Source: a virus
Taxonomy: Duplodnaviria; Caudoviricetes
Length of the DNA: 60,102 nucleotides
Virus record (IMG/VR): IMGVR_UViG_3300032286_000443
Coordinates: 1 to 60,102 of that record
Reading direction: 5' to 3' (one strand)
Positions 3,431 through 57,182 of the stretch are shown here, in pieces. Under the pieces are notes generated by a model. The model searched no databases and had not been told where the DNA came from. It saw only the letters and a list, made by a program, of their open reading frames with translations. The first letter of the stretch is position 1. Every line of letters starts with the position of its first letter. The position numbers and the translations under genes are program-made.

Positions 3431-5049
3431 TACTTTGCTAGTCTTGACATAATGCTGTGACTTTCGGCCAGTTTGCGAGCAAACTTGCTTTCACGAACTT
3501 CACGGCTAGTACCTGGACCTTCGGCAGCGCCAAACTCGTCGCCCATCTCTGGCTCATTCATCATGTCTGGCTCAGTTGGCTCCATTCCTGGCTCCATTTC
3601 TCCGCCCATGTCAGGTTCCATTCCCATTGGTTCTTCAGGAGTAGTTTCACCTGCCAATACTGCAACTGCATTACTGATAGCTTCTCGCTGTTGTGTTAAT
3701 GTTTCTAAAGTAGCAGCAAGTGCCGGAGCAACTGACTGTTTGAACTGTTCTGCTTCTGAAGCTCCGAAGTCTGCACGGATAGCATCTGCCAGTTCAATAA
3801 TAGCCTTGGTCTGGTACTGGCCAACACGTTGCATCCAGCTGGTAAAGTCATTGACCATATCGCTAGCTGCGGTAATGGCTTTGGCCTTGCCTTCTTCGTC
3901 TTCGTTAATCATCCTACGTAAGTTTTCGTTTACAATTACAACATTTTGTTTAAAGGCAATGTTTGCTTCTTTTAATTTAGCAGCTTTTTTGGCTTTCTTT
4001 GTATCACTGTCATCACCACCATCAGTGAATGTGCTGGCTTTACGGGTATATTGTGTACCGGTGCTAGTTTTCTTTACATCAAACTTACCAGTAGTCTTTT
4101 CTTTTTCAGCACGAGCTTTTGCATCGGCTACTGTTGGGAAAGCTTCTTTAACTTTCTTTGCTTTTGGTTTTTCTTCAGTGCCATTGTCAAATGTGCTAGA
4201 CTTACGTGTATATTGTGTCACACCTGGCTTGATTTCTTTCTTGTCAAACTTACCTGTAGTTTTTTCTTTTTCAGCACGAGCTTTTGCATCGGCTACTGTT
4301 GGGAAACCTTCTTTCATTTTACTATCTGCTTTTGCCGCACCTGCTGCACGACTTGCGGCTTTCTTAAACATCGTCGGTGCAAAATCTCTTTCATCTGGGT
4401 CACTATCATAAGCATATCCAGCTTTTTTATGTTCTTCTGAATCTTTCTTTGCTTTGGCAGAATAAGATTTTAATGTGTCATTGCTTAGTTCGCTGATTCT
4501 AGTTTCTTTGACTTTAGCATCTTTAGCAGCTTTCTTCATTGGCTCTTTCTTGTTGCCATCTTTGTCCATGTCAAGGAAATCAGGCTTTGCTGATTCTTCA
4601 AATGGCTTGCCTGCTTTCTTTGCAGCTTTAGCACGGCTACCCCAGACTTCGTCTTTAGGGCTTTCTATCTTACCATCGCCGTCGTAATCTTTAGCAGAAG
4701 TACCCTGGGAATGAATCTTGTACTTGGGTGACTTGACACCTTTTTTGGCTTCACTTAACTCTACCATTCTGTCTCTTAATTTTTTGATGTCTTCGCCTAG
4801 CATTTCTTTAATCCTTGTGTTTAGTAGCTTTAGTAAAGCCTGGTCTTTCTGATACGTTTCATTAGTAAGTAGATCGTTGAATCCGGCAGTACCTTCTTGT
4901 TGGAACACTTTGGTACGTAGTTTGTTACGCATGTCTTCGAGCTGCTCACGATTATATTTGTCAAAATTGAGTTTTGAGCCAAATTGCTTTTCAAAGCTCT
5001 CTTTTAGTTGTTTGCTGTTAACAGATGTAAAAAAATCTACAGTTTTCAT
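3430..5049 (-). CDS. Charged, repeat-containing protein; candidate prohead core/scaffold or internal protein
   Basis: 539 aa, K/E/A-rich, internal duplication, acidic M/E/P-rich tail, many (L/V/I/M)xE motifs resembling prohead-protease sites. Confidence 0.55.
   Translation of the reverse strand: MKTVDFFTSVNSKQLKESFEKQFGSKLNFDKYNREQLEDMRNKLRTKVFQQEGTAGFNDLLTNETYQKDQALLKLLNTRIKEMLGEDIKKLRDRMVELSEAKKGVKSPKYKIHSQGTSAKDYDGDGKIESPKDEVWGSRAKAAKKAGKPFEESAKPDFLDMDKDGNKKEPMKKAAKDAKVKETRISELSNDTLKSYSAKAKKDSEEHKKAGYAYDSDPDERDFAPTMFKKAASRAAGAAKADSKMKEGFPTVADAKARAEKEKTTGKFDKKEIKPGVTQYTRKSSTFDNGTEEKPKAKKVKEAFPTVADAKARAEKEKTTGKFDVKKTSTGTQYTRKASTFTDGGDDSDTKKAKKAAKLKEANIAFKQNVVIVNENLRRMINEDEEGKAKAITAASDMVNDFTSWMQRVGQYQTKAIIELADAIRADFGASEAEQFKQSVAPALAATLETLTQQREAISNAVAVLAGETTPEEPMGMEPDMGGEMEPGMEPTEPDMMNEPEMGDEFGAAEGPGTSREVRESKFARKLAESHSIMSRLAK
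4079..4314. repeat. Intragenic direct repeat, 2 x 71 bp (4079-4149, 4244-4314)
   Basis: Three mismatches, 165-bp period; encodes E(G/A)FPTVADAKARAEKEKTTGKFD twice. Confidence 0.9.
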
Positions 5050-55629: not shown

Positions 55630-55770
55630 TGTATACTAAGAATACCCCGCTGTAGCTGATCAGAGAATCACAGTGTGCGTAGAACAGTGTATATAAGAAA
55701 ACCCCGCTGTAGGCGTCCCCAGTTTCCCATAGTGAGTGTAACTGTGTATATAAGAATACCCCGCTGTAGG
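55630..55770. repeat. Three direct repeats TAAGAA(T/A)ACCCCGCTGTAG at an exact 57-bp period
   Basis: Cores start at 55637, 55694 and 55751, with unrelated ~31-nt intervening sequences. Confidence 0.9.
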
Positions 55771-55784
55771 GGGGTGAGTTAGGC

Positions 55785-55847
55785 TGTGTAGAAGCTGTGG
55801 AAAGGTTGTGGATAACTTGAGAAAAACTGTGGATAACTTGGGAGATT
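55785..55847 (-). promoter_or_regulatory. Phased DnaA-box array (origin-like)
   Basis: Perfect TTATCCACA at 55807-55815 and 55828-55836; degenerate boxes at 55785 and 55796 in 10-11 bp phase. Confidence 0.7.
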
Positions 55848-56024
55848 TGGTTGGCACCATTATACGATAGCCTCTCATCCCCACGGCCTTGCCTCAGATT
55901 TTCACGCTAGATCTACCGTGAACCGCAGCAATTTGGCGGTAAAAAGGGCCAAAAAAGCACCATTTTCTCACCGTTTTTGTCACTTTTTCGCCACAGTATT
56001 CCACCGTAGACCACACACTCCAAC

Positions 56025-56053
56025 TTGACCCGCCCCCGGTTCTAGTGTATAAT
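56025..56053 (+). promoter_or_regulatory. Sigma70 promoter of the tRNA/ncRNA unit
   Basis: TTGACC-17 bp-TATAAT. Confidence 0.75.
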
Positions 56054-56103
56054 AAGTACATAGTAGAGTAGAGTATATAGTAGAGTTAGTGTGTATATAC
56101 TGT

Positions 56104-56181
56104 GGGCCGTTAGCTCATGTTGGTTAGAGCAGTGGACTCATAATCCATTGGTGCTGTGTTCGACTCACAGACGGCCCACCA
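56104..56181 (+). tRNA. tRNA with CAU anticodon (likely Ile2; Met not excluded)
   Basis: Acceptor stem GGGCCGT/ACGGCCC, anticodon loop CTCATAA, TTCGA T-loop, encoded CCA; paired G1-C72 argues against initiator; overall resemblance to bacterial ileX-type tRNAs. Confidence 0.9.
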
Positions 56182-56209
56182 CAGTATATAGTGTGTATAT
56201 AGAGTTTGA

Positions 56210-56412
56210 TAAACCGTAGGATGCACGATATATACTATGTAGTATAGTGACAGGAGCTAGAAGTCTGGGAGTCACTGAAAGGTAGTTGAGGCTCACTCGT
56301 AGAGTGACCGTAAGTGCGCCGAACCTGTAACCATGCGCTTCTAGTGGTTAGGGCTAATTATCGAGAGATAATAGGAATAAGCAGGGCGGGATTATATAGT
56401 GTCACCTGCACA
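56210..56412 (+). ncRNA. Candidate ~200-nt structured RNA downstream of the tRNA
   Basis: Multiple hairpins, a GNRA loop and long-range complementarities; lies between tRNA and a strong terminator; no credible ORF. Confidence 0.5.
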
Positions 56413-56426
56413 TATATAATACTGAA

Positions 56427-56466
56427 TAATGGGGATAATGTTTGTGCATTATCCCCATTATCTTTT
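56427..56466. terminator. Strong, probably bidirectional terminator
   Basis: Perfect 14-bp stem TAATGGGGATAATG/CATTATCCCCATTA followed by TCTTTT. Confidence 0.85.
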
Positions 56467-56716
56467 AAACAAACTCAATATTATCTGTACGCAGAGTTTG
56501 TTTTGCAGTAGAGATAATACGATCTTTATCTTTTTGTATAGTTTCCCAAACAAAATCTCCGCTGACAAAGTCGCATTTTGCACGAGGGGGAAACTTCCAA
56601 GCACCTTTATCTGTTTGTTCTGTTACATTAAAAGCGCAGATAATAGTATAAACTTCTTTTTCTTTATTATATACGATTTTAGCTTTTGCAGTGTTTGCAG
56701 TATATACTTTTGACAT
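56465..56716 (-). CDS. Early hypothetical protein
   Basis: ATG 56716 (MSKVYTAN) with AAGGAG RBS and AAGACA-17-TATAAT promoter at 56742-56770. Confidence 0.7.
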   Translation of the reverse strand: MSKVYTANTAKAKIVYNKEKEVYTIICAFNVTEQTDKGAWKFPPRAKCDFVSGDFVWETIQKDKDRIISTAKQTLRTDNIEFV

Positions 56717-56843
56717 GTGTGCTCCTTTTGTGTATGTGTGTATTATACTGTCTTTTGGAGTGCCTGTCTTGTTGTATTTTGAACACAGTCTGTGTGTAGG
56801 GTCTTTGGTTGACACTGTGGTAAAACCTTGCTATAATACACAC

Positions 56844-57182
56844 ATGAACAAAGAACTTGCAACCCGTAAGAAGCGTGTCGATCGCAACCACATCATATAC
56901 GAGCTGGTTGTCAACGGCAAGAACTACATTGGCGTCACTGCCAAGACTGAAAGCACTGTGAACAAGAGCGTGCTGTCGCGTGCGGCCAAGCACTTCTACA
57001 GAGCAAAGACTGAGACTAAGAACTGGCTCTTGTGTGCTGAGTTGCGTACACTGAGCGACAAGAGCGAGATAGAGGTCTACGTGCATGAGGTCATACGTGG
57101 CAAGGCGGCTGCTCACAAGCGGGAAGTTGAGATCCGCCGCATGGTCAAGCCCGTGCTGAACACTGATACCCGTGGCGATTGA
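56844..57182 (+). CDS. GIY-YIG-like nuclease domain protein, probably leaderless
   Basis: IIYELVVNGKNYIGVT...R...H...E motifs; ATG 7 nt after TATAAT with no room for an SD. Confidence 0.7.
   Translation: MNKELATRKKRVDRNHIIYELVVNGKNYIGVTAKTESTVNKSVLSRAAKHFYRAKTETKNWLLCAELRTLSDKSEIEVYVHEVIRGKAAAHKREVEIRRMVKPVLNTDTRGD

Follow-up and report, generated by a model that had tools for sequence, protein, structure and literature searches.

Small stable RNAs encoded directly after a transfer RNA (tRNA) are known from phage T4, whose species 1 and 2 RNAs (rnaC and rnaD; 139 and 119 nucleotides, nt) follow tRNA-Arg in that phage's tRNA cluster, next to the gene of a GIY-YIG endonuclease, and are processed from the tRNA precursor. 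Large RNAs near tRNA genes are represented by GOLLD and by ROOL, the latter about 580 nt long. According to PMC12286853, GOLLD RNAs of phages are often near tRNA genes, one having first been seen downstream of a Met-tRNA, members of GOLLD are often longer than 800 nt, and some covarying kissing loops of GOLLD and ROOL proved to be intermolecular. Theta ribozymes, minimal ribozymes resembling that of hepatitis delta virus (HDV), lie 3′ of phage tRNAs, mostly tRNA-Met, suppressor tRNA and tRNA-Leu; PMC10879173 reports that their cut falls at most 5 nt from the tRNA end, that only 4.5% of their tRNAs encode CCA, and that a role in tRNA 3′ maturation has been proposed. They are known from phages of the gut that infect Bacteroidota and Bacillota. 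Here, we deal with another RNA next to a phage tRNA. The DNA in question, hereafter the window, is the whole of IMG/VR virus record IMGVR_UViG_3300032286_000443 (Duplodnaviria; Caudoviricetes; 60,102 bases). Its positions 56208–56428 on the plus strand are, as judged from aligned homologues, a member of a previously uncatalogued family of structured non-coding RNAs of about 215 nt, carried by one lineage of uncultured large phages. As an RNA family, nothing catalogued matches it, while as a phage RNA beside a tRNA it has precedents.

How can one tell that such a stretch is an RNA at all? Folding energy alone does no better than chance for the core of the element, and it is the comparison of homologues that carries the case. 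When a structure of 54 base pairs is laid over 46 distinct homologues, 95.0% of the cells are paired, against 66.8% in column shuffles, none of which (0/500) reaches the observed value, and pairing falls to 31–41% if the partners are slid by one to three columns. Compensatory changes on both sides are present at 46 of the 54 pairs; homologue covariation had been named as a check in the original prediction, which was made from the window's letters alone, and the discrete, conserved and pseudoknotted non-coding RNA proposed there has been borne out by it. The loop-loop helix, the helix Pb2, the closing pairs of Pe and the second pseudoknot, all described below, lie outside the structure of the covariance model R1 with which members were collected, yet they are paired in 96.7–100% of cells. 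In addition, RNAalifold applied to a plain MAFFT alignment of 18 sequences recovers P1, Pb, Pb2, P2, Pd, Pe and Pf. One U-G pair is invariant (46/46) and G-U pairs are frequent, a pattern compatible with the plus strand only; therefore, the RNA strand is the plus strand, and all helices below are given on it.

The predicted fold is a compact body. P1 (CCGU 56214–56217 with GCGG 56386–56389; 95.7% paired), whose third pair is CG in 22 members, GC in 22 and UA in two, closes a multi-helix junction from which a long arm, the hairpin Pc and an inner three-way junction of P2, Pd and Pe would emerge. The arm (56234–56286) is a stack of Pa at its base (56234–56238 with 56282–56286; 85.2% paired), Pb in the middle (GUGAC 56247–56251 with GUCAC 56271–56275; 96.1%) and Pb2 at the top (GGA 56253–56255 with UCU 56264–56266; 98.5%), capped by an 8-nt loop. 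Pc (56290–56309; 85–91% paired) has a conserved NUA triloop, which is GUA at 56299–56301 in the window. P2 (CCUG 56324–56327 with CAGG 56382–56385) is paired in 100% of cells and covaries at all four pairs. Pd is the hairpin at 56329–56349 (AACCA 56329–56333 with UGGUU 56345–56349; 93.0% paired), and Pe that at 56354–56375 (AUUAUC 56357–56362, GAGA, GAUAAU 56367–56372; 97.5% paired), closed by an invariant C-G and the invariant U-G, with UAGGGCU and AGGAAUAAG as conserved junctions on either side. A kissing-loop helix (KL) of 7 base pairs (bp) is predicted between the loops of Pb2 and Pd; in it, the 5′ strand CUAGAAG (56257–56263) in the arm loop meets the 3′ strand CUUCUAG (56338–56344) in the Pd loop; 99.7% of cells are paired and 7/7 pairs covary, a covariation that fits pairing within or between molecules alike. 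Pf, the 3′ hairpin (56391–56420; AUUAUAUA at 56391–56398 with UAUAUAAU at 56413–56420; 96.1% paired), follows P1, and its loop GnnACYUGC would pair back to the 5′ junction in a second pseudoknot, C56406-U56407 with A56218-G56219 (96.7% paired). The G/A-Y pair of this pseudoknot (alignment 12–279) is GC in 25 members, GU in 11 and AU in nine, with one mismatch. A longer register (5′ UGCAGG with loop CCUGCG) was considered and dropped: it is good in one clade, but is paired by column in only 61%, and its duplex energy beats shuffles (p ≤ 0.05) in 18 of the 46 members. Only the 2-bp core, with its 96.7% of paired cells, has been retained. Conserved in at least 90% of members, and in many cases unpaired, are AAACC at the 5′ edge, UGAG, GGCU, AGGAA, GGG, the Pf-loop AC.UGC and, within the 3′ ACUGA, its AC.

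All sequence strings quoted in the original prediction are present at about the coordinates it gave, and its limits, 56210–56412, were roughly right; the exact ones differ, as the conserved sequence starts with AAACC at 56211 and ends with ACUGA at 56421–56425, so that the element is 56211–56425. Three of the hairpins proposed there, TCACTC-GTA-GAGTGA, ATTATC-GAGA-GATAAT and TAACCA/TGGTTA, correspond to Pc, Pe and Pd and are kept with compensatory changes across the 46 homologues, and the proposed loop pairing CTAGAAG/CTTCTAG is KL itself. Four other helices turned out to be chance complementarities that do no better than shuffles, namely TATACT/AGTATA (43% paired), ACAGG/CCTGT (51%), GCAGG/CCTGC (65%) and GTGACA/TGTCAC (44%). 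Their nucleotides belong instead to Pb GUGAC/GUCAC, P2 CCUG/CAGG and P1 CCGU/GCGG.

Near and distant DNA searches of 50,697 phage records matched the tRNA alone, an exact 25-mer of the RNA had 0 matches in viral contigs, and a 226-amino-acid (aa) protein encoded upstream led to no confirmed locus. An 83-aa protein encoded downstream led to ten viral contigs that have a divergent, tRNA-less non-coding segment at the equivalent position. A 24-nt piece of the tRNA led to 20 loci, and in eight of them a recognisable homologue of the RNA follows the tRNA (the homologue-bearing loci being L022/L024, L023, L028/L039, L029 and L038); by eye, these homologues share motifs with the window, and their loop-loop strands differ in sequence yet stay complementary. 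Degenerate motif patterns were scanned in viral and metagenome contigs and gave at least 117 metagenome stretches, 80 of which were examined, and the covariance model R1 (217 positions, 40 pairs) was used to split members from chance pattern matches. R1 finds the window's RNA at 56208–56428 with 193.3 bits (E 4e-61) as the sole copy in the window, gives 25 matches in 33 pattern loci of viral contigs, and gives 44 family-level matches (65–224 bits) and one marginal match (7.4 bits) in the 80 metagenome loci. Alignment A3 holds the 47 full-length matches, which comprise 46 distinct sequences; members are 210–227 nt long, and the RNA is thus shorter than the large phage RNAs, as had been said in the original prediction. 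Most members were found by patterns requiring GGCT, AGGAA, GGG and ACYTGC, 38 of them by the RNA motif alone. Eight distinct members found via the tRNA or a protein carry these four motifs too, the exception being L003 with GTCT. All members are on viral or metagenome contigs. Among 185,579 prokaryote species, with one genome each, there were 38 pattern matches and 0 members (best 11 bits), and the family appears to be phage-specific, with none found in bacterial genomes by this pattern scan.

Does the RNA belong to any class already described? Rfam 15 holds 4227 models, which we presume to include those for GOLLD, ROOL, cobalamin riboswitches, HDV-like ribozymes, group I introns, RNase P and transfer-messenger RNA (tmRNA). 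At the gathering threshold, only the tRNA is matched in the whole window. At E ≤ 10, window 55900–56600, L003 3200–3900 and 10 further member loci give the tRNA and, on or near the RNA, noise of at most 24 bits, with no match of HDV type. The original prediction had been unable to match the RNA to anything known, and with Rfam 15 this holds for the window and 11 relatives. A likeness to GOLLD and ROOL had also been raised, and it holds for context but not for membership. Like them, the RNA is phage-encoded, lies near tRNA genes and has pseudoknots and kissing loops backed by covariation, and they are likewise without an assigned protein partner or function. Unlike them, it is about 215 nt long, has another helix layout and sequence, finds no match in Rfam 15, has so far been seen in one lineage of uncultured phages, and is encoded within a tRNA(CAT) operon, where it has a terminator of its own. 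By analogy with GOLLD and ROOL, the 7-bp KL could be an intermolecular contact. The T4 species 1 and 2 RNAs are similar in placement, but no helices are evidently shared, and R1 run with filters off on T4 (NC_000866 69500–73500) gives at most 5.0 bits.

Theta ribozymes share with this RNA a double-pseudoknot topology and the position 3′ of a phage tRNA. They differ from it in that the RNA is about 215 nt long, lies 4–71 nt from a tRNA that encodes CCA, and is present also without the tRNA. The minimal HDV fold consists of P1, P1.1, P2, P3 and P4, and the helices supported here (P1 of 4 bp, Pa, Pb, Pb2, Pc, P2, Pd, Pe, Pf and KL) differ from it. The cobalamin riboswitch is comparable in size and has a multi-way junction and a functional kissing loop, whereas the RNA here has no regulated downstream gene and no antiterminator. 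A resemblance of short motifs in some members to this riboswitch was rejected: Rfam lends it no support in the window and 11 members, and the order of motifs is not collinear. RNase P, the signal recognition particle RNA, tmRNA, group I introns and the lysine riboswitch were likewise discarded, as their helix order does not fit and Rfam gives no match. Full-text literature searches gave no description of the RNA. It may be listed without description among the 8495 unnamed candidates from IMG/VR that PMC10690425 reports; the contig identifiers had 0 occurrences in six supplementary files of that paper.

The window has a CheckV completeness of 17% and is therefore a piece of a large phage genome. 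From position 1 to 55.6 kb its genes are mostly on the minus strand, and those with PHROG matches include genes for tail-fibre and virion structural proteins, while small plus-strand genes follow from 56.8 kb on, the first of them at least being preceded by a consensus promoter. Between these two gene blocks lie, in this order, iterons, DnaA-box-like 9-mers, a promoter, the tRNA, the RNA, a hairpin with CUUUU and a convergent gene, and the layout of promoter, tRNA, unassigned stretch and terminator is as the original prediction had it. The three iterons, TAAGAAnACCCCGCTGTAG, come from a repeat-family analysis, are 57 nt apart (55637–55769) and stand upstream of the RNA operon as an array that may be origin-like or protein-binding. 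Two exact DnaA-box-like 9-mers, TGTGGATAA, lie inside a 21-nt tandem repeat (55807–55836), with TTATCCACA as what we take to be the DnaA-box consensus. The sigma-70-type promoter, TTGACC-17-TATAAT (56025–56053, plus strand), has 11/12 matches. The tRNA (56104–56181, plus strand; 59.1 bits) has the anticodon CAT, encodes CCA and is called Met by ARAGORN. Its C4-G69 and C5-G68, which we take to be identity elements for lysidine synthetase, suggest that it may be a tRNA-Ile2 that reads AUA, and not tRNA-Met. The RNA is followed by an intrinsic-terminator-like hairpin (56425–56466, plus strand), which has 16 pairs in the minimum free energy (MFE) fold, where 14 bp had been claimed before, and then CUUUU; it is not listed in the terminator scan because its tail has only 4 T. 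The convergent 83-aa gene (56465–56716, minus strand) has its 3′ end facing this terminator. An open reading frame (ORF) of 65 aa at 56314–56511 overlaps the RNA, starts with GTG and extends through the terminator.

How much of this arrangement is kept across the family? Of the 46 distinct members, 39 have a co-directional tRNA(CAT) upstream; the RNA motif alone had led to 38 members, and 33 of these have it. In three members, tRNA-Leu(TAA) is placed between tRNA(CAT) and the RNA. The gap from the tRNA end to AAACC is 4–71 nt (4 nt in six members), and CCA is encoded by the tRNA in the window and in the tRNA-probe loci inspected. Seven members are without a tRNA in the available flank. In four of these tRNA-less loci (L003, L008, L113 and L112), a promoter-like site ends 1–17 nt before the RNA, and a TTGNNN-17-TATAAT-like site is found at the equivalent place in most members, scoring at least 10/12 in 26 of the 46. 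In members' downstream sequences, a hairpin with a U-run is present within a few nt of ACUGA. Thus, the claim that the RNA forms one unit with the tRNA holds for the promoter-to-terminator arrangement (39/46 members), while co-transcription itself is suggested by that arrangement. Terminator stems are conserved in their turn, ATAGGG being in the 5′ arm of one group and its complement CCCTAT in the 5′ arm of another, as if the same terminator palindrome were used in both orientations. As a separate observation, the member at L112 105–328 has an insertion of about 30 nt that replaces the usual Pb2 kissing loop, and the terminator 5′ arm of that locus is strongly complementary to the insertion (−20.9 kcal/mol, z −3.8).

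Upstream, at a distance of 300–650 nt, stands the iteron 12-mer ACCCCGCTGTAG. Of the 30 members whose upstream flank extends to 500 nt or more, 29 have it at least once and 26 at least twice. The 12-mer is preserved almost unchanged even before RNAs whose sequence has strongly diverged. It is probably bound by a conserved phage protein, be it at an origin or at a regulatory locus. DnaA-box-like 9-mers occur in the flanks at 1.10 per kb, against 0.21 per kb under a uniform model; the available flanks of 20 of the 46 members have none, and L049, L060 and L176 have 4–8 such sites clustered directly after the terminator. The stretch of about 250 nt between iterons and promoter (55860–56020 in the window; 3600–3800 on the minus strand in L003) is non-coding, yet its sequence is conserved in tRNA-less relatives, for example around TTATACGATAGCCTCTC.

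Downstream, at least 30 of the 46 loci have a gene for a 112-aa protein that is co-directional with the RNA. In the window it comes after the RNA operon (56844–57182, plus strand) and after a 12/12 sigma-70 promoter with an extended −10 (TTGACA...TGCTATAAT; 56809–56837) that precedes the first small early gene. A near-identical promoter stands after the RNA terminator in L038. The 112-aa protein forms 2494 clusters at 90% identity, the best 120 of which are 86–98% identical to it. Some of these clusters have been automatically named TfoX/Sxy by the Joint Genome Institute, and the protein has no Pfam or PHROG match and no match in the 50,697 phage records, so that no cultured phage among them carries it; its motif IYEL...YIGVT may be GIY-YIG-like. 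The other small flanking proteins have no match in Pfam and PHROGs except the products of a 164-aa gene, with a match to an endonuclease PHROG, and of a 97-aa gene, with weak Pfam matches (MS_channel_2nd, DUF7464). The tRNA itself has further surroundings of note. A 13-nt direct repeat, TAGTGTGTATATA, is on both of its sides (56087–56099 and 56189–56201), and its leader TATATACTG (56095–56103) is complementary to its trailer CAGTATATA (56182–56190), a pairing that could lengthen the acceptor stem in the tRNA precursor. The 78-nt tRNA is 100% identical in contigs with different flanks (L021, L025, L027, L031–L034, L036, L037 and L040), and two nearly complete large records (342 kb and 383 kb) carry the identical tRNA in tRNA arrays, without the RNA.

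What, then, is the RNA doing there? That it is no functional RNA, and that a small coding gene, a DNA-level element or chance hairpins explain the stretch, is scarcely credible: the unremarkable folding energy of the core, the overlapping 65-aa ORF and the four chance helices mentioned above would fit it, but compensatory double changes at 46 of 54 pairs with 95% of cells paired contradict a non-RNA reading, the G-U pairs are specific to one strand, the ORF begins with GTG and reads on through the terminator, and neither coding nor a DNA-level element explains the long-range and loop-loop covariation. A self-cleaving ribozyme, or another processing element in cis that releases the upstream tRNA at its 3′ side as theta ribozymes do, has more in its favour. 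The RNA follows tRNA(CAT) by 4–71 nt in most members, in three of these after Met plus Leu, and theta ribozymes are likewise mostly tied to tRNA-Met, suppressor tRNA and tRNA-Leu according to PMC10879173. Conservation begins abruptly at AAACC, as it would at a 5′ cleavage site, P1 crosses the pairing of the 5′ junction with the Pf loop in a nested double-pseudoknot topology, and many unpaired nucleotides are invariant. Nevertheless, we regard this as quite unlikely, since the RNA is retained in seven tRNA-less members, of which four have a promoter-like site directly upstream, and since the tRNAs inspected encode CCA and the gap is variable, whereas theta ribozymes cut within 5 nt and only 4.5% of their tRNAs have CCA. 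The RNA is also about three times the size of minimal HDV-like ribozymes, its P1 has 4 bp and starts with C, and no Rfam ribozyme family matches.

A replication-primer role had been allowed for in the original prediction. An origin-associated RNA, which would itself, or through transcription from its promoter, activate or prime replication at the adjacent locus of iterons and DnaA boxes, would account for the near-constant iterons upstream, for the two exact 9-mers in the window with the enrichment in members' flanks and the clusters just after the terminator in three loci, and for the tRNA-less members that retain iterons and RNA. We hold it to be unlikely all the same. Transcription heads away from the iterons and halts at a strong terminator, nearly half of the members (20/46) have no DnaA-box-like site in the available flanks, and a primer or activating transcript needs no fold of 54 pairs with many invariant unpaired bases; moreover, the iterons are an origin only by inference, and their linkage may be plain synteny in one phage lineage. 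Could the RNA rather be a riboswitch-like sensor, in which a ligand-binding aptamer sets termination against read-through at the downstream hairpin? In size, multi-helix junctions, pseudoknots and invariant junction nucleotides it is like large aptamers, and a terminator stands a few nt after the conserved 3′ tail in the members examined. On the other hand, a search for antiterminators, with 5′ and 3′ terminator arms compared with the RNA core in 46 members against shuffled-arm controls, gave mean z values of +0.23 and −0.08, with z below −2 in 2/46 of the 5′ arms and 0/46 of the 3′ arms, so the arms show no complementarity to the RNA above controls. In the window and close relatives a convergent gene comes next, those beyond it are served by consensus promoters of their own, and the riboswitch models of Rfam 15, cobalamin included, find no match in the window and 11 members at E ≤ 10. 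Such a sensor is, in our judgment, very unlikely.

Our preferred reading is that of an early, stand-alone phage RNA, transcribed by the host RNA polymerase, released from a tRNA co-transcript and acting in trans, which we consider probable without being firmly convinced. Host RNA polymerase would transcribe the RNA early from the sigma-70-type promoter, usually together with tRNA(CAT), host tRNA-processing nucleases would release it from the co-transcript, and its 3′ end would be made at its own intrinsic terminator. In L038, where the gap is 4 nt, AUUU lies between CCA and AAACC and presumably resembles an RNase E-type site. The RNA would then act in trans as a stable molecule, whose shaped surface may bind a protein or a small ligand or may self-assemble. 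Action in trans is favoured because the RNA persists without the tRNA, with a promoter-like site directly upstream in four tRNA-less members, because terminator arms show no excess complementarity to it, and because the window has no co-directional gene downstream before the next promoter. Several points weigh against this reading or against the strength of the numbers behind it. The term trans-acting is reached by exclusion. None of the listed runs recorded as RNA contains the stretch; in four runs, contigs cover the tRNA deeply and parts of the RNA are covered at low depth by a few contigs from relatives, one of them 153 nt long and from a run whose RNA status is guessed, and these contigs count neither for nor against expression. 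The MFE of the core, 56236–56415, is unremarkable (z −1.59; 13 of 200 shuffles as stable), and the lower value of 56182–56470 (z −4.76) is largely owed to the terminator and to AT-rich palindromes. Counts for the nested helices were taken from A3, which was fitted to R1, so that they favour the model, and the invariance of motifs is partly built in by the search patterns, which will have missed more divergent members. Lastly, every member is from a group of related phages whose gene order is conserved, and the linkage to the tRNA, the iterons and the 112-aa gene may be inherited synteny and not function.

RNAs of such size, with invariant unpaired nucleotides and two long-range loop pairings, are usually ribozymes, riboswitches or parts of RNA-protein machines, and new classes of structured RNA are, to our knowledge, rare. 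It is conceivable, though we put it forward as a tentative and rather doubtful idea, that we are looking at a new natural class of RNA with an activity of its own, as a ribozyme or as a binder of ligand or protein, which large phages deploy at the start of infection. If so, the RNA might work on or with tRNA(CAT), or might couple the origin of iterons and DnaA boxes to the state of the host, and KL might join molecules into a dimer or a larger RNA-only assembly, by analogy with GOLLD and ROOL. The family appears to be abundant, because at least 117 metagenome stretches match its patterns and the syntenic 112-aa protein has 2494 clusters. To the ornate RNAs that phages keep beside their tRNA genes, such as T4 species 1 and 2, GOLLD and ROOL, it adds a small and tractable one of about 215 nt, with an alignment and a structure ready for probing, for crystallography or cryo-electron microscopy, and for cleavage or binding assays. 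Comparative support for this RNA is exceptionally clear: it is a genuine family, and one that Rfam does not yet contain.

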